Source: Blasia pusilla
Taxonomy: Eukaryota
Direction: 5' to 3'
Length of the DNA stretch: 64,000 bases
Assembly: GCA_050084515.1 (NCBI GenBank)
Contig: CM114271.1
Span: 21,328,001 to 21,392,000 of the forward strand
Program-made: the position numbers and the translations under genes
Notes under the pieces: model-generated
What the model was told of the DNA's origin: nothing
Database searches by the model: none
The model's input: only the letters and a program-made list of their open reading frames with translations
In this document: positions 7,401 to 64,000 of the stretch, piece by piece
Layout: every line of letters starts with the position of its first letter
How positions within the stretch are numbered: position 1 is the stretch's first letter

Positions 7401-7499
7401 TTTCCATCCCTGATCCGATACTCCAGGTATCCGAGGGAGACCAATGTCTCCAAGAAATTTAGAATCCCAAATTCCCAGGCACTTGGCGAGAAACCGAGA

Positions 7500-7900
7500 C
7501 TTCTAGGAGCGAGCGAGCAGCAAGTGCTACGAGACTCCAGAGTCCGAGCGTCAGAGCAAGCACGGTCCGAGCAAGCAAGCAAGTAAGGTCTGAGAAATAA
7601 GCGTCCAAGCGAGCAAGCAAGGTCCGAGCAACGTCCGACCGAGCAAGCAAGGTCCCACCAACGTCCGACCAAGCAAGCAAGATGAAAACAAGAACTGTGA
7701 AAAAACAAGGACGGTCCGAGCAAGCAGCCAACGTCCCAGCGTCCCAGAGTCCGAGCAAGAAACGAGCGAGCGTCCAAATAGCAATCGTCCGAGGGACCGA
7801 GACTCCGAGGCTCCGAGCAGTACATGAAAAAATGAGGCAGCGTCTCCGCGTCCAAGAGCGAGCATCCGAGAGCGAGCAAGGAAGAAGCGAACGAGGAAGA
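7500..7900. repeat. Array of short degenerate motifs (GTCCGAGC / GAGCAAGC) upstream of the hAT transposase
   Basis: Many copies of gtccgagc and agcaagc are visible inside the hAT boundaries. Confidence 0.6.
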
Positions 7901-8345
7901 GCGAGGAAGAATGAGGGCTCAGAGGGGCCAGCGTGGGGTCTCCCCCCCTCGGCTGGGCCCCTCGACCCTCCGTGCTGAGCGTCCGATCAGGATCGGACGG
8001 CTTAGAATGAAGACCTAAAACGCCGCGTTGGGGGGAGGGGGGGGGGGGGTAAAACGTATACTGGATGGTCTTGACGCAACCTCTCCTCGACATCATCCAA
8101 CTGTCCCTTCTACTAGCCAATTAGAGGCTACCAAAATTTTCCGCCTGCCGGAATATGACATGGCCAAAAACCGACCACCGGAAACCTCTTTCTGGCTTAG
8201 AACCGGCAGCCCCTCCCGTCCGGCGTCAGATTCCGATACATTTCTGCCGGAAACCTCAAAAGCAGATCGGAAAATCGTAAAATCAGCCGGCCAGCACAAC
8301 ATGTAACCGCGGATCTCCCCGATCATTGCTGTGGGTGTATGGAGA

Positions 8346-9989: not shown

Positions 9990-10940
9990 TGTCGTGGCCC
10001 TCATAACCAAACGAGTGCCAAGCGGAACATCCAACCTCTAGCGAGCTCACGCTATGATGGCTTGCGCTTTGGGATTTAGAGAAACACAAGTGCGACATGC
10101 AAGCACGGAGAGCGTTTAAAGTATTTCATGCATTTACGGTCGCAACTAAGGAAACCAGAACCAAACGCGAAACCCAAACTTAAGGAAGATGAGTCTCAGA
10201 AGGAAACGCGGCCAAGAGGGAGAACCAGACTTGGGGCGCGTCTAGCGGTGGGAGTTTCTGACTGTACTTTTGACCATAACTTTTAGTCCCAAGATGCGTT
10301 TGGGACAAATAAGATATCATTGGAAATCTTATGTGGATCCACTTCCAACGCATCAAAGATCTTGGAAAACGCTCAAGCAAAGGCTAAGATATGGGCCAAA
10401 ACCAATTGTAAGAGGAGTCGGGTTGAGGGCCAAAAAGAGGGGCACGGGTGCTCTTTCCCAATGGTAGGGGGACCCCAGAGATCCCCAGAAGTACTAGTAA
10501 GGGGGAACTCTCCAAGAGTTCTTGGGACTTGAACTCCACTTTGGGGCACCGTGGCGTGACTCAATAGAGTGGATTTCGGAGGTCCCTATTGGATTCCAAT
10601 TCGCGACTCATATTGATGAGTCTCGGTTGAATTGGGGATTCATGCGAGGTCTGTTGGATAGTTGGGACCGCTAGGCACGCAAACGCCGTTTTAGGTGCTT
10701 GGACTAACCTGAAAGTGTGTCCCAAGTCACGGAAGACTTGCCCGTGTTGGGAACCTAGGAAAGAGGGAAGGTTGAGCTTGAGATGCCGAGTCGAGGACTC
10801 GGTGGTTTGGAAGGCCGCTTGACCCAAAGCCAAACTAACATGAGCGCGTTTGGGTGCAGGTTGGTGATGAGAGCGTGTCCTACTGAATGTACGCTTCCGC
10901 AACACTAAGATTGACGTTTGAGGAGAGTAGGCGCACGACA
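9990..10940 (+). repeat. 5' LTR of element A
   Basis: Starts TGTCG, ends CGACA, immediately followed by the PBS; homologous to 15218-15890 and 16642-17644. Confidence 0.93.
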
Positions 10941-10942
10941 TG

Positions 10943-10954
10943 TGGTATCAGAGC
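10943..10954 (+). promoter_or_regulatory. Primer-binding site (initiator tRNA-Met)
   Basis: TGGTATCAGAGC, 2 nt after the LTR end; the canonical plant iMet PBS. Confidence 0.92.
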
Positions 10955-11108
10955 TAATCCTTGGTGAGCGAGATTTTGGGGTTGTGGGAGTAACGGGACG
11001 CTTGGGGGGAGAACCCAAGGTAGCGGCAAAGCCTAGACGCTCGAGGAGGGACGCAAGAAACAAGGAGGAGATTTGAGTGCATTGGCATAAAGATGGCAAT
11101 CGAGGGGG

Positions 11109-14100
11109 ATGAACCACGGAAATGCCGAGTCAAGTGACACGGAGCGAGAGATGAACCGATGCCAGATGGGGAGCCGGTGGAGGAGACGCCGACTCCCGAA
11201 GTGCCAAACACCAGACATGAGGGTGTCCCGAACACATACCCTCCTGTGGAGCCAGTGGCTCCAAAATCAAGTGAACCGGCCTTCTATGCCCAAATGATGG
11301 ACTATATGAAGATGATGATTGAGCAAGTATTCATGCAAAACAAGCGGATTGCACAGCTCAAGTCGGACCGAGCTTTGAGTTTCGGAAAAAAGCTCTTCAA
11401 GACCTAAACCTGCCCGCGCCATTCACTAGAGTGGGACATTCTTGCAAGGTGAAAGATTTCCTTACAGAGATGGAATATTACTTCGAGGTGCATAGGGCAG
11501 TGGAGGAAGATAAGGTGGCAGTGGCGGTCAACTTTGTAGAAGATCATGCGCTATAGTGGTGGACAACAAAGCGGGAAGAACATCTGGCCGGTGGTTCACC
11601 TCTCACTTGGGAGGAGTTCAAGATGTTGATCGGTGACCAATCAGTCGGGTACCAAGAGATTCACATTAGGGTAGAGCTCGTGCGATTGCGGCAGTCTGGG
11701 TCCCTGAGCGCTTATGTGAGGGAGTTCAGCGCGAAGTTGAACTCCATTCCTAAGATGGATGAGGCATCTGAGATAGCGATCTTCATCGGAGGACTCAAAT
11801 TGAGTGCAAAGAAGGCCTTGTACAAGATGCCGGAGTTGCCGAACACCTGCGTGGAGCTTTTGAGGCGGGCGGAGCGGATTGGGGAGGATGAGGTCCAAAC
11901 ACCGAAGACCTTTGAGACGAAAAGTTTTTCCAAGAGTCTGAAAAACAAAGGGGCTCCCAAGAGAGTCTGGAGTGGGGTTGAGTGCGACCAAGGAGAGTCT
12001 CTGAACCTGGCGGCGGACCAACAGGAACGCCATGCTAACCCGAAGGGAGCGTAGCATCCAAAGTCGAGAAATGGCAAGGTGATATGCTAAAACTGTGGTG
12101 AACCTAGGCACATGCCGAAGGGATGCTCCAAACTGAAGGTTAGTAACATGAGTATCATTGCGTTAGCTGCTAAGCACTTGTCGGCAAGAGGTTTGGAGAC
12201 CTCCCTTCAAGTCACCAAGAGGACGCCCAACTTGGTGTACCTAAGATCCAAGATTGTTGATCGCGATGTGATGTTGCTTGTGGATACAAGTGCTTTGCAC
12301 TCCTTCCTAAACCCGAGAATCGTGAAGGAGTTGGGTTTGTCAACCTCTAAGGCAGACGAACCCACTTGAGTAGGCTTTGCCGGAGGCAAGTCTCATCAAA
12401 CTTCTGAGTTGGTGTTGGGTTTGACGATAGGATGCGGAGTATTCGAGTTGAAGGAGAATTTCAAAATGTGCGAGATAGATGGCATTGATGGAGTCTTGGG
12501 GAACACATTCCTGGATGCATATGAGGTGGAGCTGAGACAAAGACCATTGAGGTTGAGAGTCTTAGTGAAAGGCAATGAGTTGCAGGTGAGATTGGTTCGC
12601 GAAATGCCTGTGAGAAAGGAGTTGGTGAACGCCATTACGAGGAGGAGTCTGACCGAGTTGGAGGATGGGTTCCTTTGCTTAATAAGACAAGTGGAGGACA
12701 TCACAAGCTAGAAGCGTAGAGATCAAGATGCAACTTTGAGGGGAATCCCAGGATTGCTACAGAGAGTAGTCAAGGAGTTTGGTGATGTCTTGACGAATAA
12801 GCTTCCGAACGAGTTGCCAACACATAGGGCAATCAATCATAAGATAGAGGTCATCCCCGGATCTCAACCATCTTCTAAGGCACCATACAAATTGAATCAA
12901 GAGGAGCTTGCTGAGTTGAAAAAGCAATTAAGTGAGCTCTTAGAGAAGGGCTAGATTAGAACCAGCAAGTCATCATATGGAGCGTCTGTTCTCTTTGTGA
13001 AGAAGAAGGATGGAAAGATGAGACTGTGTGTGGATTACCGTGCGCTGAATAAAGTGACGATGAGAAACAATTATCCTCTTCTGAGGATCGATGACCTCTT
13101 CAATAGATTATCAAGGGCAAAGTTCTTCAGTAGGATTGACTTAAAGTCACGATATTACCAGATTCGGATTGCCGAAGCGGATGTGGAAAAGACTACGTGT
13201 AGAACGAGATATGGCTCGTTCGAGTTTGTGGTGATTCCCTTCGATCTGTGTAATGCACCTCCGATGTTCATCACATGGATGAACTTCATTTCACAATGAG
13301 GTAGATGAGTATGTGATCATCTACATTGGTGATATACTTATCCTCGTACTCATCTATTCAAAGTCACTAGAATAGCACACTCAACACTTGAGGGCGGTGT
13401 TGTCAAAACTAAGGGCGAACAAGTTGTACGCGAATATGGACAAGAGTGAGTTCGGGTTGCACAAAATCAAGTTCTTGGGTCATGTGGTTAGCAAAGATGG
13501 ATTTATTCCAGATATGGACAAGGTGAAAGCCATCGCCGAGTGGAAACCGCCTTCCACAGAGAAGGGAATGAGGAGGTTTATCGGCGCGGTGCAGTTTTAC
13601 CGAACCTATGTGAGGAATTTCTCGGGTATTGTGAGACCTCTCACAAATTGGAACGTGAAATACGCTTACACCCAAGAAGTGAATGATGCGTTCAACCGAG
13701 TCAAGGAGATCCTATCGCACGAGCCAGTGCTAAAGCAGCCGGAGTTTGGCAAGCCGTTCGAGGAGCATACTGATGCTAGTGATTCCGCAATTGCAAGAAT
13801 GTTGGTACAGGAAGGAAGACCTGTAGCGTATGAGAGCAAGAAGCTCAACAAGAAGGAGGTGGCCCACTCATGAGAAATATTTTTTTGCCGTGGTCCATTG
13901 CTTGAGGAAGTGGCGTCACTATTTGGGACTTCACAGGACTCGAGTGTTCACCGATAACGTATCACTCAAGTATTTTGAGACTCAGGATCGAGTGACACCA
14001 AAACAACTATGATGGCATGATACCTTGGCGTTGATGAATTTGGAACTAATCCACAAGCCAAGGAAGGATAGTGTTATTCCAGATGCATTGAGTTGTAGGG

Positions 14101-15217
14101 ATGAGGACATCCATCGACAACACAGGTCTTGAGAGCAATGTTTCCTAACGAAATCCATCTAGAAAGAAGGATTTGTGAGGGATATATGAAAGACACCCAA
14201 GCAAGCGAGTACCTAAGGAAGTTGAAGAAGGGAGAGAAGGTGGCCAACATAAGTTTGAGGCATGGTTTGCTAAGGTTCAAGCAGAGCAGGATCTATGTGG
14301 ATGAAGGTAGATTGCAAACCAAGGTGTTAGTGGAATGTCACGACGGATCATGGTCAAAACATAAAGGGAAGAAATCCACGTTGGCTATTCTGGCTAAGAG
14401 GTTCTTCTGGCCCAACATGAAAGAGGATGTTGCTCAATATGTGAAGACTTGTGTGACATGTTAGGCAAACAGAGCTTCTTATGCAAAGAGCCAAGGCTTG
14501 TTGCACCCTTTGCCGATTCCGGAGAAACCCTTGTAGAGTGTGAGTATGGACTTCATAACTAGTCTTCCAGAGTCTGAGGGATACAACGCTATACTTGTGA
14601 TAGTTGATCGGTTCAGTTAGTTGGGGAGATTCCTAAGGTACGTGAAGCATGCTAACAAGAGTAGACGCCAAGTGAGATTCCAAGTTGGGGAACAAGTGTG
14701 GTTGAGTGTGAGGAATCTCACTCTTTCGAAGGAGTTATCCGCGAAGCTATTTGCCAAGTATGTTGGACCGTATGTGATTAAGGCAAACCCGTTTGAGGAC
14801 GTGTATACATTGGAGCGACGAGAAGAGTTCAAGATACATCCCACTTTCCATTGTCATTGTTGAAGAAGTATCTTCAGGATAATGAGCGTCCCGAGCGAAG
14901 ACATGCTTTGAGACCGCAGCCGATAATCGCGAGTGAAGAACCGGACTTCGAGGTGGAGACCATTTTGTGTTCGAGGCGTAGGGCCAATAAGTACGAGTAC
15001 TTGGTCAAGTGGTTGTGGCGACTGAACGGGGGTTTAACAGGCGTGTATTCAACTCCCTTTCGTGAGAGTATTTGCCGTTGCAAGGTTTAGCACACTTCAC
15101 TGTCAATTCCTCTGAAAGCTTCGAGTTCGTGCGTGACAATCATGCGTGAGAAATTTTGGTACTACCATGTGAAAGAGGCAACTTGGATTGCGGAGGCAGA
15201 CGTGGAACACGTGCACA
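11109..15217 (+). pseudogene. gag-pol of element A (fragmented)
   Basis: gag 'LVRLRQSGSLSAYVREF'; CCHC knuckle ~12084-12126; protease 'LLVDTSA'; RT '[18 protein letters not shown]...YPLLRIDDL'; RNase H 'HTDASD'; INT Zn-finger 'ECHD...RFFWPNM...YVKTCVTC'; INT core mostly deleted after 'VDRFS' (~14617); chromodomain 'FEVETIL...YLVKW / EATW'. Confidence 0.93.
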
Positions 15218-15890
15218 ATTGGAAAGCTTATGTGGAGCTGATTCCAACGCACCAAAGATCTTGGCAAACGCTGAAGCAAAGGCTGAGATATGGGCCAGTC
15301 GTTTTATGCATTGTAAGTACTATTGCCCCAATGAGTGCTACTAATAAAATTAGACTAGAAACCAAAAACAAGAAAAAAAATAGCTTGTATATAGTAACAA
15401 AACCGACTATTACTTTATACAAGCTATAAAGTAATAGATTGAGGGCCAAAAAGAGGGGCCCGGAACGGATCGGGAGTTTGGCGTTGGGATTCGAAACCCG
15501 AACCAAGTCCAATAGAATGGATTTCGGAGGTCCCTATTGGATTCAAATTCACGACTCGTATTTTTGAGTCTCGATTGAATTGGGAACTCATGCGAGGTCC
15601 GTTGGACTGTTGGGACTGTTAGGAGCGCAAACGGCCTTTTAGGTGCCTGGACTAACCTGAAAATCTGTCCCAAGTCTCGGAAGACTTACCCGTGTTGGGA
15701 ACCTAGGAAGAGGGAAGGTTGAGCTTGATGAGATGCCGAGTCGAGGACTCGGTGGGTTGGAAGGCCGCTTGACCCAAAGCCAGACTAATGTTGGCGCATT
15801 TGGGTGGAGGTTGGCGATGAGAGCGTGTCCTACTGAACGTACGACTCCAAAACACTAAGATTGGAATTCGAGGAGAGTAGGAGCACGACA
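15218..15890 (+). repeat. 3' LTR of element A, 5'-truncated (first ~330 bp and PPT lost), with an insertion
   Basis: Homology to the 5' LTR begins at 'attggaaa' (5' LTR position 10319). Ends 'cacgaca' followed by the TSD. Confidence 0.9.
15298..15397 (-). pseudogene. nad6: Mitochondrial nad6 fragment (NUMT) inserted in the LTR
   Basis: The minus strand encodes 'FFLFLVSSLILLVALIGAIVLTMHKT', the C-terminal transmembrane segment of plant mitochondrial Nad6. It is AT-rich and absent from the 5' LTR. Confidence 0.85.
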
Positions 15891-16641
15891 TCCATCTTCC
15901 TAATCAACTTTGTAATTTTGAGCTTAACAAATGTCTAGGTCACTAACTTCTTCCTTTTTGGAATTTCCTAAAAATTTACAAAGCCATTTAACAAGGCCTA
16001 GTCCTTTTTTCCAATGGTCCTCCCTAAGTTTTGTGCCAAGTTCACCAATTGTACGATGTGGCCTTCTCAAGCTCCCTTTGAAGAACATTGTCACATCTGA
16101 GTAGCCAATAGGCCGAGATCTATCGTGGATAGGGCATAGGAGCCAACAGACTGTCTTGAGTGTAACTTTGTCCCAAGGTGTCGGATAAGGTTCAGGATAG
16201 GTCCGTTGTGTCAGGAACGTCATTTTTGACAACTTTCTTGTTGAGGTCTTTCATAGCCGGGTGACTTGTTGAGGAGGTCACCCACCCCTGGAAACATGTG
16301 TGCAAAGGTTATCAAGAGGATAGCTATTTTTAGGGGAAGAGCCTTTTGGCTCTTCCCAACCCTATATAAGGGAGGAAGATGGCTTTCCCAAGCCATCTTT
16401 CTCATGTTGGGCTGTTGGAGTATCATTCTTGCTGGTGTGTGTGAGTTAGGACTAGGTGCTAGAGTCTGGATTCCTTGATAGCACAGGGATGGACAAGGCT
16501 TGATATGCCGATGTAGATTGAGGAGTGGAGTTTTAGGCCGGGTGTACCATTTTTACTACTATTTATTTTTACATGAGAAAGATGTTAGGGGGCTGGTGGA
16601 AATTTGTTGTTTGCAGGTAGGCAAGCGAGTTGCCTCGGTGG

Positions 16642-17644
16642 TGTCGCGACCCTCATGACCAAACAAGTGCCAAGCGGAACATCGGAACATTAGCGGGCTC
16701 ACGCTAAGATGGTTTGCGCGTTGGAGTTGTCTCAAAGAGGAGACAAGAGACGAGACGCGAGCGAGGAGTCGCATTTCAGGTGTTATGGTCGCGACTGAGA
16801 AACCTGGACCAAACGCGGAATGAGACTTGAAAGAAGTCGAGTCTAGGAAGTGGGTTGCCAAAGGAAAGATCCGGATTTGGAACGCCACTAGCGTTTGAGA
16901 GTTTCCGACTGTATTTATGGCCATAACTTTTAGCGCCGACATGCGTTTGGAGCAAACAAGGGTGCGTTGGAAAGCTTATGGAGAGCCGGTCCAAATGCAC
17001 CAAAGATCGCTGCAAACGCATAAGCAGCAGCCGAGATAAAACCCAAAAACGACTGTAAGTGGAGTCGGGTTGAGGGCCACAATGAAGGGCCCGACCCTCT
17101 TTTCCCAAAGGGGAGGGGTAATTGGAGAACCCCATAAGTACTAGTAAGGGGGAAGGTCTCCGAGAGTGCTTGGAACCCAAACCCCACTTTGGGCGCCGCA
17201 GGGCGGCTCAAGGGCATGGAACGGAACGCGAGTTTGGGGGTTGGGTTGGAAAACCTGCACCAAGTCCATTGAGGCGATTTTAGACATCCCTCTTGGATTC
17301 CACCCCGCGACTCAATTACTTGGGTCTCGGTTCGGACCTCACCCGAGGACCGTTGAACAGTTGGGATCGCTAGGTGCGCAAATGCCGTTTCAGATCCCTG
17401 GACTAACCAGGAAGTCTGTTCCAAGTCTTGAAGGACTTGCCATGTTTTGGAAGCTAGGAACTAAGGAAGGTTGAGCTTGATGAGACGCCGAGTTGAGGAC
17501 TCAGTGGGTTGGAACGCCGGTTGGCCCAAACCCGACTAACGAGAGTGCGTGTTTGGGTGCAGATCGGTGATGAGTTCATGACCTTCTGAATGCACGCTTC
17601 CGCAACACTAAAGATTGACGTTCAAGGAGAGTAGGGGCGCGACA
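16642..17644 (+). mobile_element. Solo LTR related to element A, nested in the leader of element B
   Basis: TG...CA ends; TSD GGTGG at 16637-16641 and 17645-17649; colinear with 9990-10940; no PBS or internal sequence. Confidence 0.93.
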
Positions 17645-18199: not shown

Positions 18200-19450
18200 A
18201 GGAGATGGACGATATGGGCCACCAGAGCATACGTCATTTCTCGGGTGTAGTGGGCACCATCGACTTAGATGACTTCATCTAGGAGTTTGACACGTGGTAT
18301 GATTTCCTAGAGATACGGATCCCAACACGGTTCAACCCTTTCATGGCATGGAAGGGGTTGTTCCAACACTTGGAGGGTCCTCCGATGGATGATTACATGG
18401 ATCGCTATGTTTAGTATAGATTGATACCTGGAGGATGTATGGGGCTCCATGGTATGTGTCCACTAGTGATCGCTAGGCGTAAGATGGGATCGTGAGAGGA
18501 GAGAGACCCACACCATCAGCCCGGAGACTAGATGGAGAGGAGGGCAATGAAACAGGCGATGTGGCAAAGACCTTTGGTGGTAGAGGGCCACCCAGCTTTA
18601 GTCCCATATTGGAGTTCTTCCAAGAGTTAGGGAAGAGCTATCAAGGCGTATGCACGGACAAGCTGAAGAGTCTACACAATTTTCAGCGACGATTGGGTGA
18701 GAGTCTGAGAGAGGCGTTCACGCGCATGAGGAGACTGATCATTGCTACTTATGGAGTGATTGAGGCGCAATCATTCCAGTATTGGTACGGGGTTCTGGAT
18801 CGAGAACTACGGAGGAGAGTTCGAGATGCGGTGCTTATTTACACAGCAAAGCCCACATTGAAGGTGGTCTTCGAGTTGTCTGAGTGTATTGAGCTTAACA
18901 TGAGTGAGGAGCAGGTAGTGACCAGTGGATTTTTTCAAGCGTCGATGGGTCCACGAGTGACGATAAATCCACAAGAGCCACAACGAGCATTAGTACCACG
19001 AGAGCAAGCCAGTGTGCCCAGAGAGCAGGGCGAGTAGGGTGAGCCTATGAGGCAACGACCCGTGCCTACATATGTTGCCAAGCAGGGACCGATGTTGTCT
19101 TGTTGGACGTGTGGAGGGGCCCATAGGCAAAGAGACTTCCCACAGCATGGGAGAGGACCATGAGTGCCTCCGATTGCTCAGGAGCCAGAGAGGATGGCCC
19201 CACCACAATACCAATGTGACTATTGCCACAGATATGGTCCCACTAGGGATAGATGTTTTGACCTTTGTCAAGAGGCACATCCAGAGGTAGGCCGAGGGCC
19301 TGGGGGGTCGTCCTGGAGGAGGTCGAGGAGTTGTTGTTGGATGTGGTGGTAGAGGACTACTACTTGCCATAGGAGATGGAGCGGGAGCACCAGAGACGGT
19401 GCTTCTCTCACGCATCAATCATTTGGAGCAGAGGATTGCTACCATGATGA
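18200..19450 (+). pseudogene. gag of element B
   Basis: 'WKGLFQHLEGPPMDDY'; Retrotrans_gag-like 'LHNFQRRLGESLREAFTRMRRL'; two degenerate Zn knuckles 'CWTCGGAH' and 'CDYCHRYGPTRDRC'. Confidence 0.75.
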
Positions 19451-19995
19451 TGATGCAACTTAGGGAAGGCACGGAGCCGAGAGTAGCTAGTATGGCTCTA
19501 GCTTCCACCTCCTACCCTGACCCAGGTGAGGATCTCGCTAGCTAGTATGGGATTTATGTGTAGTGCAGCTCAGGTTGAGGTTGTTGCGGTGGTGACTCGG
19601 AGTGCTGCGAGAGGCTCTGAGCCCTCGAGAGGTGGAGTTCAGATTGACCCCCGGGAGGGGACCGATGGGCGGTAGGCCAGGGTTCCATAGTTGTTCACGT
19701 TGTTAAAGGCACTTCACACACTATCGATGGTGCCTTGACGACAAGTGGTGCCTACAGGTCAGGCAGGTGCATGGATGTCACGACGAGTTGGAGTAGCAGC
19801 TCCTATGCAAACTCGAGTGGAGTCAGTGTTGGAGGTGGCCACCAAGGTGACCCAGGATCCGTTATTTTCGGCCATAGAGTTGGCGACGTTGGGAGTTGGA
19901 TCAATTGACGTGTTCCAGCTGAGGTATTCTAGATGGTCGCCACGTTGTGTGAGTGTGGAGAGGTGACTGCCTCTCATTTCTAGGTAGTTTAGGAG

Positions 19996-21880
19996 GTGAT
20001 GGACTTGCCCTCGGTGCAGATACTTGGGACGTCCTCCATCAAGACATGGCATGCAGCGGCGACAAAGTTGGTAGATATGCCAGCTCGACCGGCCATAGAG
20101 CGGACCATGGTGACACTAGGTGTGGTGTTATTGAATAACCGAGCTGGAGTATTTTGCTTGGTTAGTCCAACATGGACAGTGTACCACCCGCAACGCGTCC
20201 TACTTGATTCGGGAGCACAACCCTTGATGTTAGGGAAGACGGCGTGTTTAGCGTTAGGGTTACAGAAGGCCGGCATTGAGCCTTGTCCCTTCCAAATCCA
20301 GACCTCGATTGGGGGCGTGTCATCCATGCAGTATATGACTCAACAGGAGATAGCTATCAGAGTCCAGCCAGAGCATGCAACATATAGCGCTATGTTGCAC
20401 ACACGTGCGATTACGACACCAGCTGAGTTGTATGATGTGTTGGTGGGGAGTACAGTGCTATATCCCCTAAGATTCATCCTTGACTTCTGGGAGGAGACCG
20501 TTGGTTATCGGCCACGATGGAGGTCAAGTGACAGGAAAATGAGTCAGTTATCCATGCAATTTGCGGGACGAGGTGGTCGACCACAAGATGAGTTTGTAAC
20601 CACGTTGGCAGCTTTCACAGCTAGTGTTAGCTGGCCAGGAGAGATGTTGGAGGGGAACGCACATGCAGAGGATGTCCCAGTAGCGGATAGTCCCACGAAG
20701 AGACAAGCCATGGCGGGTGTCTCTTGCCATGTTGGCGAGACCTTTTTACCATTATGGTTTACGACTCGAGAGTTACAGAGGAGTGTCGACGACCTTATGA
20801 GGCAGGCGTGGAGTCATGCCTTTATCCCGGAGCAGCAAGAGTCAGGTGGCGATCGGGCTCCTAGAATGGAGACGTTTACACCACTGGATACCACACCCAT
20901 TGTGTGGCAGTGTCCACAGGAGGGTGTTAGGGTATTAGATCTCTTTGGAGGGATTAGCACCGGATTAGCTACGGTGTTGCAGGCCGGCATACGGGTGCAT
21001 CAGTACTTTGATATGGAGAGAGATGAGACCGCACGGCAAGTATCATTACGTCACGTGGGGAGATTGGTCCACAGGTATCCTGAGTTGTTGCCGGTATCTG
21101 TAGAACGGGGGTATCAGCATACACTACCCGCCGACATCTCTTTGGTGGGGGCGCAGGATTTGGATAGAGTTAGCACCATTCATTTGATGATTGTTGGAGG
21201 GCCATATCAGGGTCATTCATCAGCTGGCCGAGGGTTTGGATTGCAAGATCCGAGGTCAGGGATGTTTTGGGAGATGTTACAAGTAGTGCGACACTTGCAG
21301 GAGCATCAGATATGTTCTCCGGCGTACATTTTGGAGAACGTGCCATTGTTGGGAGATACTTGTGCCCGTGTGATGATGAGTATGCATCAGGTGAGGTCCT
21401 CGTTAGGACCAGCTATGTTGTTAGATGCAGCGAGAGTTGGATCACGCGCCCACCGTCCACGGTTGTGGTGGATGAACCTGATACCATCAGAGGTATTGAG
21501 TTGAGCATACGATAGAGTTCATTGAGCACCACATCTCACAGTGGATGCTATTTTGGGCTTAGGGCATTGATTTCAGGTGGTGACGTGGGATGATAGACCA
21601 TCGTTAGCGATAGCCAATAGGGTGGGGGAGTTGAGGGCAACCTTACCTATATTGGTGAGCTTCCCAGCATCCCATGCCTTTCGTCAAGGAGGGCCACGCA
21701 TGATTTGGGATGAGGTGACCCGAGCATTGGAGGAGCCTATGGCAGATGAGCGCGAGTGCACCATGGATTTGCTACGGGTACTACGGCGGTGCCAGGTATG
21801 ACTAAGGCATCACGGAGACATGTGTTGGGGCAAGCAATGGATCTCAACTGTCTCACATGGATAGTCAGTCTAGGTATGGC
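19996..21880 (+). pseudogene. Aspartic protease fused in frame to a DNMT3-like C5 cytosine methyltransferase domain
   Basis: The 502-aa ORF (19996-21504) has the protease motif 'VLLDSGA', then MTase motif I 'VRVLDLFGGISTG', IV 'IVGGPYQG' (PC>PY), VI 'YILENV' and VIII 'AHRPRLWW.N'. After stops and a frameshift come IX/X-like 'ERECTM...RRHVLGQAM' (~21750-21850). Confidence 0.88.
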
Positions 21881-22239
21881 TGCGTAGAGATGGATGTGAG
21901 TGCCATCCATGCCGTCATGTCCACGAGTTGGAGCATTGCCTATAAGGTGTGTACATGCATTGGCTGGGGGCGAGATGAGGAGAGATAGGCACCCATGGAC
22001 TTCCTGGGATGTCATCCAAGCGGAGAGTGCGAAGGCGGCTAGAGCAGCACATGTTCATTTTTTCAGAAGTAGAGCATGGTGTAGGAGGTCAGAGTAGAGT
22101 GACTCTTGCAGAGGTGGCAAGGGTTGCTACATAGCAACTAAAGCCGGAGGTTGCGTCCTCTCCGAGTGAGGTCACGATGGAGACTTGGGAGCCAGTGATA
22201 TGTCTCAAGTTGATAGAAGGAGAGCGACGACGGGTTCAT

Positions 22240-24100
22240 AGGTTTCTGAGATGGCATGTCAGTTGTTTTGCCTTCAGTATGAGAGACTTGGGTACGCTGA
22301 AGGGTCGCAGGATACGGATTGAGTTGGCTAGTGATACGCCGATCTTTCGTTGATCCTACAGGTATTCCGATATGGAGCGAGCCTTGATTCAGAGTAGGAG
22401 TCAACACTTGTTGGAGGCAGGACTTGTGGAGTTATTGCATGGGGAGTATGCATCTGCCACAGTCATACCGGCGAAGAAGGATATGTATGGCAATTGAATG
22501 GAAGGCGGATGTGCAGGGATTACCAACCTATCAATCGATAGACAAAGTCGGGTCAATATGCCATGCCTACTCCTGAGGCGATCTTTGATGTGGTAGGACA
22601 TGCAAATATTTTCAATACTTTAGATCTCCGTGTTGGCTATCATCAACTCCCTATCAGGTGGGAGGACAGGGAGAAGACAGCATTCTGGGGGATAGATCGG
22701 TTCGGGAGAGATTGTTTGTATCAGTGGCGGTTCTTACCATTTGGGTTGAAGAACGCGTCTGCGGAGTTTCAGAGAGTGATGGATAGGATTCTTGCTGGCT
22801 TGGATTTTGCGCAGTATTACATAGATGATATTCTTATCTTCAATTCCACGGTTGAGGAGCATGAGCGACACCTAGAGGAGGTATTTCGGCGATTGCACTT
22901 ACATGGATTGAAGTTACATCTAGGCAAGTGCAGATTCTTTCAAGAGCAGATTGAGTACTTGGGACATACCATATACCCCAGTGGGTTAGGTGTTTAGCAG
23001 ACAAAGGTGGAGGCTATTGTGTAGATTCCACGCCCTACAGATGTGAGTCGGGTCCGAGCATTTCTGGGACTGCCGAACTTCTATCGATGGTATGTCAAGG
23101 GTTTTAGTGCAATCGCAAAGTCTTCGACCTTGCTGACAAGACTTGATCAGGTTTGTTGTGGGGAAATGATCAGGAAAGATCATTTCAGGAGCTCAAGGAT
23201 AGGTTGACTTCCTCACCCATTTTACAGAGACCGATTAGGGGTCACCCATTCCAATTACATACGGATTGGAGCATGTTGGATCTAGAAGCGGTGCTTACTC
23301 AGAGGGATGATGAGGAGAGGGAGTTTGTTGTGGTTTACGCGAGCCGATCGGACAATATTGCAGAGGCAAAGTACAACTCTAACGAGGGAGAGTGCTTGGC
23401 TGTAGTGTGGATCGTGGCACATTTCAGGTGCTATCTATTCGGCAACCCTTTCACACTTATCACTGATCAACAGCCGTTGAGATGGTTGATGGAGTCCGAC
23501 AAGCTTAGAGGAAAGCTTGCCATGTGGGCTCTATTACTATAGGAGTATGAGTATGAGTTTGAGGTGGTTTACAGGCTAGGTCGGCTGAACCATAATGCGG
23601 ATGGGTTGAGTCGTAACCCATGTCCGAGTCACAGAGACAACATAGGAGCTCGATAGCACGGAGAGAGTGATGAGGAAATTGTACTGGTTGGCATGCATCT
23701 GCCTATCTGTGTTGGTTGACTATGGTAGGTCAGCCACAAGTGGTGACTCTAGTGGCGGGGTTGGATGATGAGTCTTTGGATCCGAAGGTCATTGAGGAGA
23801 CGACAGGTGGTCGTGATATCCATAAGGATGTGGAGGTTGTTGAGTTCTTGCGTAGTGGCGTCATAGTGAGCACAATGAGTGCTAGGGAGCGGGATTGGAT
23901 CCTACAGAGAGCCAAGAGGTTTAGGTGGGAGGGGACTCACATTTTGCGGGTATAAGAAAATGGTAGGATACGAGTGGTATCCCATCCTTCCCAGCAAGCA
24001 CGTGTAGTGCGACATGCCCATGAGGAGTTGGGGCATTTTGGAGTAAAGCGTACTTATAGCTTACTCCATGTTCAATATTGGTGGCGCGGCATGCATAATG
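22240..24100 (+). pseudogene. RT - RNase H - integrase Zn-finger of element B
   Basis: 'LDLRVGYHQLPI...KTAF...FLPFGLKNA...YYIDDILIF' (RT), 'FQLHTDWS...YASRS...ECLAVVW' (RH), 'HAHEELGHFGVKRT...YWWRGM' (INT H2C2). Confidence 0.93.
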
Positions 24101-25981
24101 CACTAGAAGGAATATGGCAAATTTAGCACTAAGTCACTTACAACTAAAGTCCAATAAAAAAAATACAACTACATGTAACTAAAAAGTCATAGATGGCAAA
24201 TTTTAGTATTAATTAGTTACTAAGAATGACTAGAGAATATGACATGGAATTTTCTTTCTATATTTTTAAAATATTTTTAAAAATAATTACTATAAAGTAA
24301 TGACATGGCATTATAAATGACTAGATTAGTGCATAAAGGACGTGGACATGGCTTGTAGTTGCTTAAAATTGAAGTCCAATACAACTACATGTAACTAGAG
24401 AGGCCTAGGTGGCATACTTTAGTATTAATTACTTACTAAAAATGACTAGAGGATGTGATATGGAAATTTATTATCTAATTAAAATTTTTAATATAATTAC
24501 TATAAATTAATGGCATGTCATTAGAAAAGACTATATTACTCCAAAAAGGACTAAGACAAGGCATTTCTTATGAATTAATTAAAATTAAAATTTAATTCAT
24601 AACATGACATGTAAAAATAAGACTAGATTAGAATTGGTAGAATTAAAAAAACTTCCCTCCAATTTTTAATATAGTTGGTACATTAAAATTATTGCCAAGT
24701 TGGCAAATAAGATCCTAATAAAATGAAGCCACATCAGTTTGTTTAGACCCTCTTTTGAGTTTTGAGACGCTAAGTACTTTCCCGCACTCCTAGTACTTTC
24801 CCACACTCTTAGAGCTCGCGTCCCGCGGCCGTGCATATGCCTTAGGTTGAAAGTTTGAGAAAGCTCTAGGTTGGAAGTTTGAGAACTCGAGATCATAGCA
24901 TTGATCCTCAATCTGTATCTGTTTTCTGAAGAGTGTGGATTCATCCGTGGACAAGTAGGGATGAGCACGAAGAAAGGGCAAACAAAGCATTTGTGACTCG
25001 GGCTAGGAAGAGGACAAGGAAGAAATATTTGCCGCATCTGTGACTCACGCTAGAAAGATCGCATTAGAGCTTTTGAATGGGTGGGACGAAGGGCCTTTAG
25101 CTGCCAATGCCAACAAGGTAAACTATTAAATTTTAATTCTCACCTAGAATATCTATGATTTGTTAGGGAGGTTATGGCAATATATGGCCTTAACTAAACC
25201 CAGCTACACACATCTGTTAATCAAGGGAAAAAAAACAGAAATTCGAAGAGCATCTGAGAGGAGATAGAGTTAGAGAAGATTGACCAGATAGAAGCAAGAT
25301 TTAAGCAAATTGAAGAGGAAACGGCCCAATACTACATCTAATGTGCAATTGATGATACGGAGGAGTATGAATTGAGCCATGAACTCCATAAATTTACAGA
25401 TTCTTGTTGAAACGCACTCTATCACCATAAATGCACCCTATCACCAGGCTAGGAAGGAGGAAGAGTGGTATACGTGGAGGAAGAACATGAAGGAGTGGTC
25501 ACCGGATTGGTGAGGTAATATATGTCATGATGTTTTTTAGTATAAAGGGCGAGCAAGATTGATAGCTAGTGAGAGTGTCTTCCCATTGCTCTGTTATTCT
25601 CTATGATTCTCTCTTGTTTAATCATGTTCAATATATGACTTGTATAATTTTTTGTATCCAAGACGTATGAGGTAAGAGTAGAGGGCCCTTCTCTTCAAGC
25701 GAGCCTCTCAGCCTAATCAACCTATATTATAAATGATGTTCCACATTCTACTTATAAGATGGTATTTGGATCCATTATGCAGGTGATAGCAACAATCTTT
25801 AAATGGGGGAGGCAAGGAGAATCAGGGAGTTTATTTGTGATTTGACTAGTAAGTACCTATAGAGAAGAAAAACCTCCATCTTAATAAGTTATTTTGGTTG
25901 ATATCTTCTTAGACTATTGATAGAACATGGATATGACGTGAACTCCTATCACCCGTTAGAACACATAATTAATAGAAGTGA

Positions 25982-28900
25982 ATGAAGGAGAGTTCTATGT
26001 TATGTAGCCCATTTTCACACATATTGTTTGTTCTATTAGAATGCAGAGAACGGGAAATTAAAAGAGCTAGGCTAGGTCTAAGTGATGTTGGGAGGATCGC
26101 TGCCCATGACGAAAAGATATGGCGTAGTGAGAAGGAAGCAACAAGAGTTCTTGGGTTGAAGAAACTAAGGTGCCTATGTAGTGAATGCAAAGGGATAAAA
26201 TTGAGATTAGTACACATTGTAGAACAGTACCTCATTCAAAATAAGAGATATCCTCCCAAACGAATCTGGGTAAATCCTAATGATTATGATTCATCAGATG
26301 AGGAGTGGAAATCAAATGAAGGCCACCATGGTGATAATCACGTTACTCTAGATCATAGTGATGTTATAACTGATTTAAATCAATCATGTAGTGATCCACC
26401 TTTGGAAATTGACAAAACGTTAGATATCCATCAGATGATCAACGAGGCTTTCCATACCTTTGATATGGGACAAGTCCAAGATCTGCCAACAGAGATACAA
26501 CTAGATGCTAGAATCGAGGATGAGGATCAAGTGCCATTTGAGATGGGGATAGACGAATCTGAAAGGGAAGATGGTGAGGAGGAATGGGCTAAAGAGTCTA
26601 AGGTGTTAAGGGATGCTTGTCGACCCTTATTTACGGGTTCTAAAACTAGCAAACTTGCATTCACCATGTTGTTCTTAAACATATGTGGTACTCATAATAT
26701 CTCAAATATTGTTGTGGATAAGATCCAAAAATTCGTGGCAGTGCAAGTCGTGCCCAATGAGAATGTGGTTCTAAGAAACCACTATGATGCCAAAACATTG
26801 ATCAATAAGTTGGTTTTGAATTACATTCAAATTCATTGTTGTCCCAATGGTTGTATGCTCTTCAATGGAGAGCATAAGGACTTGTTGAATTGCTCAAAGT
26901 GCAACTCCCCTCGATATAAAGTGCAAGGGAAAACAAAGATTGTTGTAAAGGTTCTCAGACACTTTCCAATTATCCCACAGCTAAAACGTATGTATAGATG
27001 TAAGACCATAGCTGAACTAATGAAATGGACATCAGAAAACAAAAGTAGCGATGGTAAGGTGCGTCATGTGGGAGATTGCCGACAATGGAAAAATATAAAT
27101 GAGCGTTGGCCAGAGTTCATGAACGAGCCTCGTAATTGTCTATTAGGGCTTGCTTTAGATGGAGTAAATCCTTTTAGGGACAAGAGTTTAGTTTGGTCAA
27201 CTTGGCCTGTTGTTTTGGTGAACTGCAATCTTCCACCATGGTTGTGTACAAAGAAATTCTTTCTCCAATTGGCTTTGATCATTCCTGGTAAGGAGTCAGT
27301 GTCTTCTCATAACTTAGATGTGTATTTAGGTCCACTTGTAAACAAGTTATAACTACTTTGGAAAGGAGTTGTTGAATATGATAGTTCTCTTCTTGAAGGC
27401 CAAGATAAGTTCCTTCTTAAGCCATGATCATATGGACTATTAGTGACTATCATGGGCTAGGTGTGGTCTCTGGCCAATGTACCAAGGGAAAACTGTCATG
27501 CGTGGTGTGTGGACTACAAGTAGATTCATATTATTCTAAACCTTTGCGTAAGCCAACATTTCAAGGCCACTGACGGTATGAAGATATAAACGGTATAAAG
27601 ATAGGATCTTCCTTACAAGAAGATTCAATTTGCGCATCTTTTCAATCGATAGATTGAAAATCGTCCAACGCCCAACGTGTGACCAGTCATGACATATTGA
27701 GATGGGTTGAAATGAAGAAGATATTTGATGAAATGCCAAGACCTAGGCACAATTGGGGTTGATCCGTACAAAGAATATGGGGTCCAAAGAAAGAGCATTC
27801 TATTCGAATTTCCTTATTGCAAGGTGAGTAAAACCTATTGAAGATGTTTCCATTTTTTCATACTTGTCCGGCTTTCCATTTCTTGTGGTGATTGTGTTGG
27901 TTTGATCACCAACTGGTTTCTTTGTTGAGTGCATGGATAAACCCAAAATTCATATTATTCCTTCTTGATAATTTTTCAGGATTTATTGATCCGTCATTTT
28001 TCGTATGAAGAAAGAAGGACTCGGTTCAAGTTAGGCAAGACATGGAGGTTAGGGGAATTAGACGTCACTTATGGCTTCAAGCGCATCCTAGTAGAGCATC
28101 CGTTAAGTCAAAACCAAAGTCAGATTATGTGCTTACCCCTGAGAAGGTTAAGATATTTGACGCTAAGGTACAAAGTCTAAAAGTTGCTAGCGTTATGCTG
28201 ATGCTTTACAAAAACATCTTCTACGGAAGAATATGGGTGCACTTAAGTCCCTGACCATCATATTTTTATGCAACAACTCTTACTATTCTTTTTGCGAGGA
28301 CTCTTGAAAAGCCCAGTGAGGATGACTATCATGCGCATGTCCAAAATTTTCCCACTCCTTTGTGTTAAGACATACAACCCTGAGGATTTTGAATCCTTAA
28401 AAGAAGACGTTTCTACCACGCTTTGCCTCATGGAGATACATTTCCCCCTTCCTTCTTTGACGTGATGACTCACCTCCTTGTCCATTTGGTTGAAGAGCTT
28501 GATATTTGTGGCCTTGTTCCATGTCGATGGATGTACCCTGTGGAGAGATACTTGGGTGTATTCAAGAATTACGTCAGCTCATGTGCTAGACCAGAAGGCT
28601 GTATGGCCGAAGGATATCTACTTGATGAAGCTCTTGGTTTCATCACCGAGTACATGCAAAACTATGATGTCATACGAATAAGAGTTTGGGATGCGAGCGA
28701 GGACGAAGGAGTTATTGGCAAAGTGTTAGAAGGTGTCGGGACCAAGCGTCAAATGAGCTCTGAAATTCTTAAAGTGGCACATGAATATGTGCTCCACAAT
28801 AGTGAATATTTCACAATATGGTTGGAGTAAGTACTAGTGTTATGTAAACTCTTTCCATCTAGTTTCCTTCTAGCCTTTCTATTTCTATCGAATCAGATTA

Positions 28901-53667: not shown

Positions 53668-55400
53668 TATATGCTGGCTTGGGTGGATCCAATGTGGACC
53701 ACATTGTTGGAGGTGGCCACTATGGTGAGCCACACTCCATTTTTTTCCGCCATGGAGGTGGCGACAATGGGAGTTGGACCAACAGGGTTGTTTTGGCTGG
53801 CCACCACCTTGTGTGAGCGTGTAGAGGTGATTGCCTCTCATTCGGAGGTGGTTGGTGAGAAGGTGGTGGACTTGCCCTTGGAGCATGTGCTCAGGGCGTC
53901 CTCCACTCAGTAATGGCAGGCTGCAGTGGTGAAGTTGGTAGATATGCTAACTCGACTAGCCATAGAGCGAGCCATGGTGATTCTTGGTGTGGTGTTATTG
54001 AATAACCAGTCTAGAGTGTTTTGCTTGGTTAGTCCCGCACGTATAGTGTACCACTTGCAACGCGTTCTACTTGATTCAGACGCACAACCCCTTATGTTAG
54101 GGAAGGCAGCGTGTTTGGTATTGGAGTTATGCAAAGGCAACATTGAGCCTTGTCCCTTAAGCTTTGAGATGCAGACCTCTATTGGAGGCGTGTCACCCAC
54201 GTAGTACATGATTCGACAAGAATTAGTTGTTAGATTCCAGCCAGAGCATGAGTTATCCTTGATTTTTGGGAGGAGACGGTTTCTTATCGGCCAAGGTGGT
54301 GATTAGGTGATGGACGGATGAGCCATTTACCTATGCGGTTTGCAAGGCATAGTGTTGGTCCACGATGTGATGTTATGACCACGTTGAAAACATTCACATG
54401 TAGTGGATAGCTAGCGGGAGAGTTTTTGCAGAGGAGCACCCATGTGGAGGACGTACATCCTAGTACCAGATAGTCCCACAAAGAGACATGTCAGGGTGGA
54501 TGTGTTTTCCCATGGTGCGGAGACCTCTTTACTGTTGTGGGTATGAGCGTTGAGTGAGAGTAGTGCAGACAAGCTCATGAGGCACGCATAAAGCTGTGTG
54601 TGTGTCTTGGAGGAGACAGAGTCAGGTGACGGTCGTGCTCTTAGACTGGAGACTTGATATCTTTGGATACCACACATATTGCGTGGAAGCGTCTAGAGGG
54701 GGGTGCAAGAGTGTTAGATCTCTTTGGAGGGATCAATGTTGTAGAATGATATCCAAATACATCCATATCTCTAAGTGGAGATAGATGAGATGGATCCGCG
54801 GACGAGCATGTGCTAGGAGATGTTGCAGGGATGACGGCACCAACGATGCTCGATGTGTATAGAGTAGTAGATCATATCACTTAGATGTGATGTCTGCTGT
54901 CCGAAGTTAGGGGGACTCAACTGCCAATTAGGGGGAAATTGTGTGGTCCCGATGTATATGTGTGAGTACATTTCGTTTATGAGTGGATCAATCCATGTGT
55001 TGGAAAGATCAATGTTGTGTGGTGTGTAGATACCACCATCGTCGTGGGTTGTGTAGCGATATAAGTGTATATGCACAAAAATTGTTACATCTTAGTTAGC
55101 CGACAGGTAAAGTTCTACTGTGTTGACAAAATAGAGGGTCAACGGGCTATTTGGGAGTAACTTCACCTTGAAATATCGGGTGAGGTTGGCAACAAGTCCA
55201 TTGCATCGGGAATATCATTTCTGAAGATGTCCTTCTTTTGATCTTTGTCAGCCAGATGTTCGGCTGGATGATCCATTGACCAAGTCCAAAATCACCCGAT
55301 AACCTGTGCACGCATATGTAGGTTACCGTTTGGAGGCTATTTTTTGGGGAAGATCTTTTTGGCTCTTCTTAAGGCTATAAGAGAGGGAGATATCTATATT
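53668..55400 (+). mobile_element. Second, internally deleted copy of the DNMT-bearing Gypsy family
   Basis: 53668-54830 is colinear with 19800-21060 (PR 'RVLLDSDAQPLMLGK'; MTase motif I 'RVLDLFGGI' ~54708-54735). A PPT-like AGGGGGAAA at 54930 precedes TG at 54940. 55100-55400 is homologous to the LTR-like 16110-16380. Confidence 0.85.
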
Positions 55401-63129: not shown

Positions 63130-64000
63130 CATTTTGTGATGCCCGTTGTCAATTGTTGTGCCATGCCACTTGAGGCCCTACCACCTTGTGTTGTTGTGAA
63201 GTCGCACCATGTTGTTGAGTAATGTGTGGTCATAGCTGTAGCCGCCTTGTATTACTTGTGACCACATCACGTCATTGAGAGAAATTGTATTGTGTCAATA
63301 TTGGGGAGTATGATTGATTGGTGAGTGGAGAAGTTTGGTCAGTTGTATCAGTTGGCTCCTGCCTAGAAGCGACATCGACATTGTGTTTCAGGTTATCCAT
63401 CCTAGGCCCTAGGCCTTTTTGGAGGAAAAGTCTGGTACCGCATCATCTAGAGCATTGAGTGGTTCCAAGTTGTGGGCATACGAGATGGATAATCTAGTCG
63501 TAAGACCTCAAAGGTTTTCAAGGGCCGTGGGGACCATTGAGTTGGACCACTTCCTTGCAGAGTTTTGAAGGTGATGTGACTTCCAGAGGGCAAGGAACTC
63601 CCAAGAGTAAACCCCTTTATAGATTGGAACGACATGTTTCAACATTTGGAGGGGTGGCCTATGGACAACTATCACAAGTTCTTGGCCTCGTTTCAACGGT
63701 AATCAAGGCTTGGAGACATTATTACAATCCACACTGTGTATCGTGGGCAAAGTCGTTCGCAGATGATGAGGAGGAGATGGGAAAGGCTACCTCATGTACT
63801 ACTAGTGAGATCCAAGGAGGGGTAGCCCACTTTGGAACAATTGCATCATCTTGTCAAGTTTGTTTGAGGTTCAACCCCTCGGTTAAGTTCTTCTTCGAGC
63901 CAAAGAGGAACTACGAGGCTCGGGGACTTTACTCTTCATTGGATTACTTGCCCCTGTGCGAGCAAAGATAGGGGCACTTTTATTAAAAAATGGCCAAATT
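63130..64000 (+). mobile_element. Third divergent fragment (gag 5' part, possible LTR piece) of the element B family; runs off the window
   Basis: 63510-63680 aligns to 18235-18400 ('WNDMFQHLEGWPMDNY' vs 'WKGLFQHLEGPPMDDY'); 'RFNPSVKFFFEPKRNY' vs 'SFSPILEFFQELGKSY'. Confidence 0.7.

Follow-up and report, generated by a model that had tools for sequence, protein, structure and literature searches.

A DNMT3-like methyltransferase domain in bryophyte Ty3/Gypsy retrotransposons, traced from an inactivated copy in Blasia pusilla

Introduction

Retrotransposons that carry an enzyme of the class with which their hosts silence them are known in dinoflagellates and in one charophyte. De Mendoza et al. 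2018 (PMC5890265) described a Gypsy element with DNMT3 in Klebsormidium nitens, and DIRS elements and long interspersed nuclear elements with DNMTs in Symbiodinium; statements drawn here from this and other cited papers refer to the portions of their text that were available. Whether land plants harbor such elements is a question raised by a 64,000-nucleotide stretch of the Blasia pusilla genome (contig CM114271.1, positions 21,328,001 to 21,392,000), here called the window and numbered from its first letter. An initial annotation, made from the letters alone, placed in it a Ty3/Gypsy retrotransposon encoding its own DNMT3-like cytosine methyltransferase.

We are confident that the region from about 16642 or 18206 to 24126 is an old, inactivated, 3'-truncated Ty3/Gypsy copy from a family that is multi-copy in bryophytes and has the order gag, protease (PR), DNMT3-like domain, putatively leaky UAG stop, reverse transcriptase (RT), RNase H (RH) and integrase (INT), with a PHD finger in intact relatives. 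Carriage of this host enzyme class by retrotransposons now extends to a multi-copy family in Marchantia polymorpha.

Results

Domain order of the window copy

The core of the element is a stop-to-stop open frame of 503 residues at 19993..21504 on the forward strand, on which all features lie unless stated otherwise. It is the same frame that had been reported as 502 residues from 19996. Open reading frame (ORF) analysis, Pfam and motif reading show that it joins an aspartic protease with the signature LLDSGA (20200-20217), a linker of ~240 residues separating the protease from motif I, and the methyltransferase motifs I (LDLFGGISTG, 20935-20964), IV (21196..21213), VI (ILENV, 21328-21342) and VIII (AHRPRLWW, 21448-21471). 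Motif IV is defective. It reads GGPYQG, with tyrosine in place of the catalytic cysteine and glycine in place of the preceding tryptophan, where relatives have GWPCQG or GWECQG. The C-terminal half of the domain, with motifs IX and X, follows in broken form at 21505..21890; motif X reads GFATGTTA...LGQAMDLNCLTWIVSLG in a shifted frame.

Downstream of the methyltransferase are the RT (22135..23120; Pfam RVT_1, 98.6 bits in the open piece 22542-22997), the RNase H (23147..23659; RT_RNaseH, 98.2 bits at 23147-23542) and the N-terminal part of the integrase with its H2C2 zinc finger (23779..24126; Integrase_H2C2, 42.5 bits at 23956-24126), where the element ends. By tblastn the RT is 58-63% identical to the Marchantia protein P0157 and to ORF2 of the related locus L076, and the RNase H was matched at 62-66% identity. 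Upstream is a degenerate gag region (18206..19990) with a start ATG at 18206, which was recognized by tblastn with the Marchantia protein P0152. Residues 12-547 of P0152 match 18232-19918 at 38-75% identity over four frames, and residues 543-1163 match the 503-codon frame at 53% identity.

The PR-RT-RH-INT order of pol, the Gypsy-type RNase H and the H2C2 integrase finger identify the element as Ty3/Gypsy. The order gag-PR-DNMT-RT-RH-INT given in the initial annotation is borne out by the Pfam domains and by the gag homology to P0152. A phmmer search of the 503 residues against 1.84 billion representatives gave 1485 matches at E<=1e-3, 27 of them at E<=1e-30, and the frame is therefore not a chance one. 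That the window contains a Gypsy element with a DNMT3-like domain is thus confirmed as an observation.

DNMT3 identity of the methyltransferase

A DNA_methylase profile search had been proposed as a check on the methyltransferase. The window frame matched PF00145 with 24.9 bits, above the gathering cut-off of 22 (E 1.6e-5). Five relatives scored 25.6-46.1 bits and ORF1 of L076 scored 51.1 bits. The motifs are in the order I, VI, VIII and then IX/X, which is canonical and unrearranged, unlike that of DRM.

The likeness to DNMT3, first noticed from the motifs, was examined by sequence, profile and fold searches, all of which rank DNMT3A/B/C first. When a 203-residue piece (window 20893-21504) was compared with the PDB by phmmer, the first 29 distinct sequences were all DNMT3A, 3B or 3C (best E 4.5e-6), and the next matches were HaeIII and HhaI at E>0.27. 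A family profile (A2, 30 rows) matched DNMT3A/3C/3B at 3.3e-28 to 3.7e-22, followed by DRM (1e-14 to 3e-11), M.HhaI (1.8e-8) and DNMT2 (~1e-6); no DNMT1 or CMT chain was found at E<=1 in this search of the PDB. The AlphaFold2 model of the DNMT domain of an intact relative, L054, had a predicted local distance difference test score (pLDDT) of 94.3 and a predicted template modeling (TM) score of 0.93. Foldseek with this model listed only DNMT3A/B/C chains at ranks 1-50 (best E 6.3e-20), with target-normalised TM scores mostly of 0.77-0.82 on isolated catalytic-domain chains. A search of the ESM Atlas was uninformative, returning generic DNA_methylase clusters only, one of them from a streptophyte. 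Neither PWWP nor ADD gave a Pfam match in the window frame or in the scanned family proteins, where the domain is flanked by protease and RT. The domain is a DNMT3-like catalytic module rather than an orthologue of host DNMT3.

The methyltransferase is an integral domain of the family

Longer homologues of the 503-residue frame numbered 22, of which 15 are from Marchantia polymorpha, one is from Sphagnum fallax and six are unnamed. Most cover 94-100% of the query and three cover 34-70%, at 34-60% identity. The named proteins nearest the window copy are those of M. polymorpha (45-55% identity) and S. fallax, in keeping with the apparently bryophyte lineage that had been suggested. The protein P0019 is an uninterrupted polyprotein with zf-CCHC, PR, DNMT, RVT_1, RNase H and integrase.

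Metagenome contigs were also scanned. There were 530 pattern matches, 363 of which encoded relatives, and 80 loci were kept. In loci of at least 9 kb (n=35), PR is upstream of DNMT in 34/35 and RT is downstream in 27/35. The remaining 8/35 reach a contig end or have an internal deletion. No other domain order within one element was observed among these 35 loci. In L019, L004, L075 and L015, ~340-bp direct repeat pairs (86-95% identical) bound ~9.1-kb units that contain all domains.

We considered whether the DNMT segment could be a one-off, that is, a host DNMT3 fragment captured by, nested in or mis-assembled into a single Gypsy copy, an outcome that the initial annotation had named as counting against it. 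In its favor, the window copy is degenerate and its surroundings are a transposon nest, a setting in which chimeras are common. PR and DNMT nevertheless share one 503-codon frame, the same order recurs in the 15 Marchantia models, the Sphagnum model and 34/35 long metagenome loci, within long terminal repeat (LTR) pairs, and the RT-RH and DNMT trees described below give the window copy the same relatives. Nor are the relatives assembly copies of one locus, because they have diverged to the identities given above. One-off insertion was rejected on the recurrence in Marchantia and Sphagnum models, long loci and LTR pairs, and we regard it as extremely improbable. A host gene interrupted by a transposon was also rejected. 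The family has long conserved the DNMT as one of its integral domains.

The Marchantia and Sphagnum relatives are annotated as protein-coding on chromosome-scale assemblies, as would be expected if they were domesticated host genes and the window copy a pseudogene of one. Against this, the copies are numerous and diverged, contain pieces of gag, PR, RT, RNase H and integrase, and are in several cases marked 'partial'. LTR pairs occur in related loci, most of which are decayed, and three family fragments occur within the window. We give domestication almost no credence. It had been stated that DNMT-bearing elements are not part of the usual land-plant Gypsy repertoire. A DNMT-type Gypsy is indeed present; the implied rarity did not hold, since annotated bryophyte genomes contain multiple copies of the family, which is itself part of a broader clade within the green lineage.

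The ratio of nonsynonymous to synonymous substitution (dN/dS, Nei-Gojobori) in the DNMT domain of diverged intact copies is 0.15 for L054/L003, 0.16 for L004/L003 and 0.12 for L076/L079, rough values as dS of these pairs is saturated at 1.4-1.9. Between two near-identical copies dN/dS is 0.89. Low ratios between subfamilies together with 0.89 between near-identical copies fit selection on an active lineage followed by neutral decay after insertion.

Two architectures

A domain scan of 228 family proteins revealed two architectures. The PR-DNMT-RT-RH-INT type comprises 7 complete proteins, 33 PR-DNMT proteins and other partials, and its named hosts are Marchantia, Sphagnum and the charophyte alga Closterium. 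The RT-RH-DNMT-INT type comprises 51 complete proteins plus partials, and its named members are from the chlorophytes Monoraphidium neglectum, Scenedesmus sp. PABB004 and Chromochloris zofingiensis. No published description of a Gypsy clade with DNMT between RNase H and integrase was found in the literature searched.

The two types separate in phylogenetic trees. A FastTree analysis of 139 DNMT domains divided them into 57 and 82 rows with support of 99, and the rows of known architecture all fell on the expected side except for one Marchantia model without its RT. In an IQ-TREE analysis of 49 DNMT rows, with the host-type DNMT3 P0267 (PWWP+ADD+DNMT) as outgroup on a long branch, the RT-RH-DNMT-INT type formed one clade (17/17 rows, SH-aLRT 99); 6/31 rows labelled as PR-DNMT-RT type had no protease or RT match in the scan and took their label from their clade. 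The window copy grouped with L003 (96) inside a seven-row clade that also holds Marchantia P0152/P0163, L004/L054 and P0153 (100). The two types were mostly separate in an RT-RH tree of 99 rows as well (2 and 3 label changes), with the window RT beside Marchantia P0157/P0166 (97). The RT and DNMT trees that had been called for, the latter built with one host-type DNMT3 as outgroup, place the window copy with the same relatives. The root is uncertain, so that either position of the DNMT may be ancestral.

Conservation of the catalytic motifs

The catalytic cysteine is kept in 134/139 aligned family DNMT rows, and GWPCQG is kept in 26/43 full-length DNMT matches from the metagenome loci. The residue before the cysteine is proline in 56 of the 139 rows and glutamate in 75. 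In the RT-RH-DNMT-INT type motif IV is mostly GWECQD, with the cysteine kept in 63/63 rows. Glutamate in place of proline could change or abolish DNA C5-methylation.

We also weighed a different role for the domain. It could be real and conserved yet act on element RNA, as DNMT2 does on tRNA, or be a non-catalytic module like DNMT3L that binds DNA or chromatin or oligomerises. Besides the glutamate in 75/139 rows, such a role would fit a domain whose 341 residues exceed the 285 of the DNMT3A catalytic domain by ~55, that would be translated with Gag, an RNA-packaging protein, and whose Klebsormidium counterpart did not methylate DNA in yeast (PMC5890265). Conserved catalytic motifs speak against a pseudo-enzyme of the DNMT3L kind, which would not need them. 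The cysteine, motif I, the motif VIII arginines and, in most rows, the E-N-x of motif VI (ENV 61, ENT 55, ENA 8) are all conserved. By sequence and by fold the domain is matched best by DNA-bound DNMT3A/B and not by DNMT2, the bryophyte clade retains the canonical GWPCQG, and the related SymbioDIRS-Dnmt3 domains methylated CG in yeast (PMC5890265). We therefore consider a role other than DNA methylation unlikely.

A conserved stop separates the methyltransferase from the reverse transcriptase

Comparison of junctions between DNMT and RT revealed an in-frame stop. In the window, TAG at 22132-22134 is in the frame of the 503-codon ORF, its context is TAG CAA CTA (22132..22140), and the RT frame resumes directly after it. 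Among 44 junctions (41 found by pattern, plus L003, L079 and the window), 41 have a stop at this site, TAG in 29 and TAA in 12, while two have a tyrosine codon and one is shifted. The full CAR-YYA context follows the stop in the window, L003, L076, L079 and L020, and one junction reads CAA CTC. The arrangement is clearest in L076, which is intact. ORF1 (976-5082, 1369 residues) encodes gag, PR and DNMT, ORF2 (5086-8226, 1047 residues) encodes RT, RNase H, integrase and PHD finger, and the two are in one frame with a single TAG between them.

Family proteins show the same break. Of 39 proteins with an upstream protease and a complete DNMT end, 11 continue into RT and 28 stop short; ~20/39 terminate 57-137 residues past the DNMT, including Marchantia P0152, P0156 and P0165. 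The earlier-branching P0019 group has a single ORF. The initial annotation had put the DNMT inside pol. It does lie between PR and RT, but because of the conserved in-frame stop it belongs to the gag-PR reading frame, of which it forms the end.

Tobamoviruses use UAG followed by CAR-YYA as a leaky stop, and gammaretroviruses rely on gag-UAG-pol readthrough. Since the context resembles the tobamovirus signal and the gammaretrovirus arrangement, we infer that UAG with a CAR-YYA context is read through at times.

The integrase carries a PHD finger

A PHD finger, PF00628, lies at the C-terminus of the integrase encoded in L076 (5086-8226) and in L019 (14096-15217), with E values of 2.6e-10 and 2.7e-8, respectively. 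No chromodomain was detected in either integrase by domain scan. Among the longer relatives, most have PF00628, whichever architecture type they belong to. The truncation of the window copy lies upstream of where this finger would be encoded. Neither the stop that follows the DNMT nor the PHD finger on the integrase appears to have been described before as a feature of the family.

State of the window copy

This copy of the element is dead. It has lost the catalytic cysteine (tyrosine in GGPYQG, 21196-21213). Three in-frame stops interrupt its DNMT domain, beginning with the one at 21502-21504, as does a single frame change near 21765-21775, and two further stops follow motif X. Protein-to-DNA matches shift frame at least 9 times between 18232 and 23949. 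In the coding parts CpG is depleted (observed/expected 0.59-0.71) and TpG+CpA is in excess (1.19-1.35), a combination that fits decay of methylated cytosines.

The copy is also truncated. It breaks off at ~24126 inside the integrase, neither an integrase core of the DNMT element (tblastn, E<=1e-3) nor a 3' LTR was found elsewhere in the window, and GC drops from 0.48-0.52 to 0.36 past 24126. Pfam and repeat analysis of the sequence that follows (24127..27352) identified an AT-rich part starting CACTAAGTCAC, a 216-bp subterminal repeat (1.9 copies, 24162-24562) and a Transposase_21 ORF of CACTA/EnSpm type (25982-27352; PF02992, 114 bits). On account of the CACTAAGTCAC start, the AT-richness, the repeat and the transposase ORF, insertion of a CACTA/EnSpm-type DNA transposon probably removed the 3' end of the element. 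The opposite terminal inverted repeat of this CACTA-like sequence was not found within the window. Dead and 3'-truncated, the window copy is capable of none of the activities discussed below, which are therefore confined to intact family members.

The 5' boundary is less sharp. Repeat analysis, blastn and reading of the termini revealed an LTR-like sequence with TGTCG...CGACA termini at 16642..17644, a candidate 5' LTR for the DNMT element. It has no 3' partner because the element is truncated, and no clear primer-binding site of the tRNA-iMet type was found after it.

Two more pieces of the family lie in the window. The second fragment, from protease to the start of the DNMT (53683..54733), has 71-75% identity to 19824-20954 by blastn and matches P0152 residues 510-796 by tblastn. 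The third, a gag N-terminus at the window edge (63506..63917), matches P0152 residues 11-150 by tblastn. When the region upstream of the third fragment was compared with 16642-17644, only the gag start aligned.

Window neighborhood

The window is a transposon nest with no evident host gene, and no Rfam family was matched in it. A separate, fairly complete Gypsy element without DNMT occupies 9990-15891. Its LTRs (9990-10945 and ~15219-15890) are 88-89% identical in aligned repeat segments and have TGTCG...CGACA termini. A tRNA-iMet-type primer-binding site, TGGTATCAGAGC, follows the 5' LTR, Retrotrans_gag is at 11557-12054, and RT/RNase H is at 13376-13873. Its RT-RNase H is only 30-36% identical to that of the DNMT family.

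An ORF on the reverse strand (6337-6873) has a sub-threshold match to DUF4371 (24.3 bits vs a cut-off of 32.1). DUF4371 is common in hAT-type transposases, and this ORF may be another transposon remnant. Over the larger part of 10-32 kb the GC skew is positive. GC content is ~0.50 within both Gypsy elements and falls in a step to 0.36-0.40 within the CACTA region. Six sequencing runs were listed as sharing words with the window, each with a small share (0.05-0.12), and no RNA run was among those listed, a result that bears on neither expression nor habitat.

Discussion

The family described here suggests how an active element might deploy a methyltransferase. Gag-PR-DNMT would be translated as the main product, and occasional readthrough of UAG in its CAR-YYA context would yield Gag-PR-DNMT-RT-RH-INT. 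Should readthrough occur, the major product would contain the DNMT together with Gag and protease, and RT-RH-INT would be minor. The protease would then free the DNMT from the polyprotein, and the freed enzyme would methylate cytosines in the element cDNA or in DNA close to the point of integration. The PHD finger of the integrase would read a histone mark and thereby influence the choice of target chromatin. The initial annotation had proposed that the enzyme could methylate the cDNA of the element or host DNA. This is ruled out for the window copy, and for intact members it is a prediction from sequence.

A more specific scenario is possible, though we hold it only tentatively. A bryophyte Gypsy lineage descended from streptophyte algae would combine a DNMT3-like writer with a PHD reader. 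The writer would be made at Gag-like levels and packaged, and would methylate the cDNA before or at integration. In the sister lineage, whose named members are chlorophytes, the writer would have moved to the junction of RNase H and integrase. Methylation of the cDNA, if true, could be a form of self-marking by which the element passes as resident methylated DNA or limits its own expression. Concrete hypotheses on dosage and targeting, open to test, follow from the conserved stop past the DNMT and from the PHD finger of the integrase.

Several observations weigh against the interpretation of the family as one with an active methyltransferase and a leaky stop, or against the limits drawn for the window copy. 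Enzymatic activity has been shown for no member of the clade. In the one published bench test found for the Klebsormidium counterpart, the isolated Gypsy-DNMT3 domain produced no detectable methylation in yeast, a result that its authors called inconclusive as human DNMT3B also failed (PMC5890265). Of 43 metagenome copies in which the DNMT match is full-length, only 5 lack stops, hence most sampled copies are dead. Glutamate replaces the canonical proline before the catalytic cysteine in 75/139 rows, none of them in the bryophyte clade. Readthrough was deduced from nucleotide context, and 35 junctions, from the abundant moss-type copies, read CAA CCC, which departs from CAR-YYA at the last base. 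Finally, the assignment of 16642-17644 as the 5' LTR is made uncertain by its 72-77% identity to both LTRs of the different, neighboring Gypsy (9990-10945 and 15219-15890).

The family matters in two practical respects. Marchantia polymorpha is genetically tractable, so what a transposon gains from its own DNMT is directly testable in a land plant. Annotators should also be aware that bryophyte gene models named 'DNA (cytosine-5)-methyltransferase' can be transposon genes.

How much of this was known before? In its available text PMC5890265 treats bryophyte DNMT3 only as host genes. The phrase 'streptophytes (Gypsy-DNMT3)' occurs in PMC12344493 (2025) and in the preprint 10.64898/2026.05.21.726589, both citing the 2018 work. 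The available portions of two papers on Marchantia and moss methylation, PMC6453930 and PMC5784723, make no mention of such elements. In the openly available article text searched, DNMT-bearing retrotransposons were not named for Marchantia, liverworts or bryophytes, nor were the Marchantia gene ids, and an earlier mention elsewhere may exist. A literature search for PHD fingers in LTR-retrotransposon integrases of green algae gave only a paper on Penelope-like elements. Sequences of the family may already be present in the supplementary DNMT trees of 2018, 2024 and 2025 papers. The Gypsy-DNMT3 kind is already known from an alga, and the present family extends it to land plants.

Comparison with known systems

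The stop resembles those of tobamoviruses and gammaretroviruses in that a single in-frame UAG, followed by CAA or CAG and YYA, parts an abundant from a rarer product. It differs in sitting after protease and DNMT, whereas that of gammaretroviruses is right after gag. Readthrough is a prediction here, and moss-type copies have CAA CCC.

Chromoviruses and EpiLTRs likewise have a chromatin reader fused to the integrase C-terminus, and EpiLTRs also combine several epigenetic modules in one element (10.64898/2026.05.21.726589). The reader is a PHD finger in the present family and a chromodomain in chromoviruses. The writer is DNMT3-like, whereas the DNMTs of EpiLTRs are placed next to DNMT4 and occur with an adenine methyltransferase (10.64898/2026.05.21.726589).

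SymbioDIRS-Dnmt3 of dinoflagellates is similar in having a retrotransposon-borne DNMT3-type domain within a polyprotein, and de novo CG methylation by it was demonstrated in yeast (PMC5890265). It has a DIRS backbone with a tyrosine recombinase and belongs to an unrelated host lineage, and its authors describe an independent acquisition (PMC5890265). The Gypsy elements whose DNMT lies between RNase H and integrase, with chlorophytes as named members, belong to the same DNMT clade by sequence as the present family, and most have a PHD finger at the integrase end. Their DNMT follows RNase H instead of the protease, and they form a clade of their own within the DNMT tree.

The closest published counterpart is KnitGypsy-Dnmt3, which is of Ty3/Gypsy type, has an unrearranged DNMT3-type domain with conserved catalytic residues in its coding region, and resides in a streptophyte (PMC5890265). 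Purifying selection is evident in both, with Ka/Ks <0.2 for KnitGypsy-Dnmt3 (PMC5890265) and ratios of 0.12-0.16 for the present family. The hosts differ, being land plants here (nearest named Marchantia and Sphagnum) and a charophyte for KnitGypsy-Dnmt3, and no Klebsormidium-named protein was among the homologue-search matches for the family. The relatives described here have plain direct LTR pairs, whereas a figure legend describes a DIRS-like arrangement of the K. nitens repeats (PMC5890265). Likened to KnitGypsy-Dnmt3 by its published description, the family is of the streptophyte Gypsy-DNMT3 kind.

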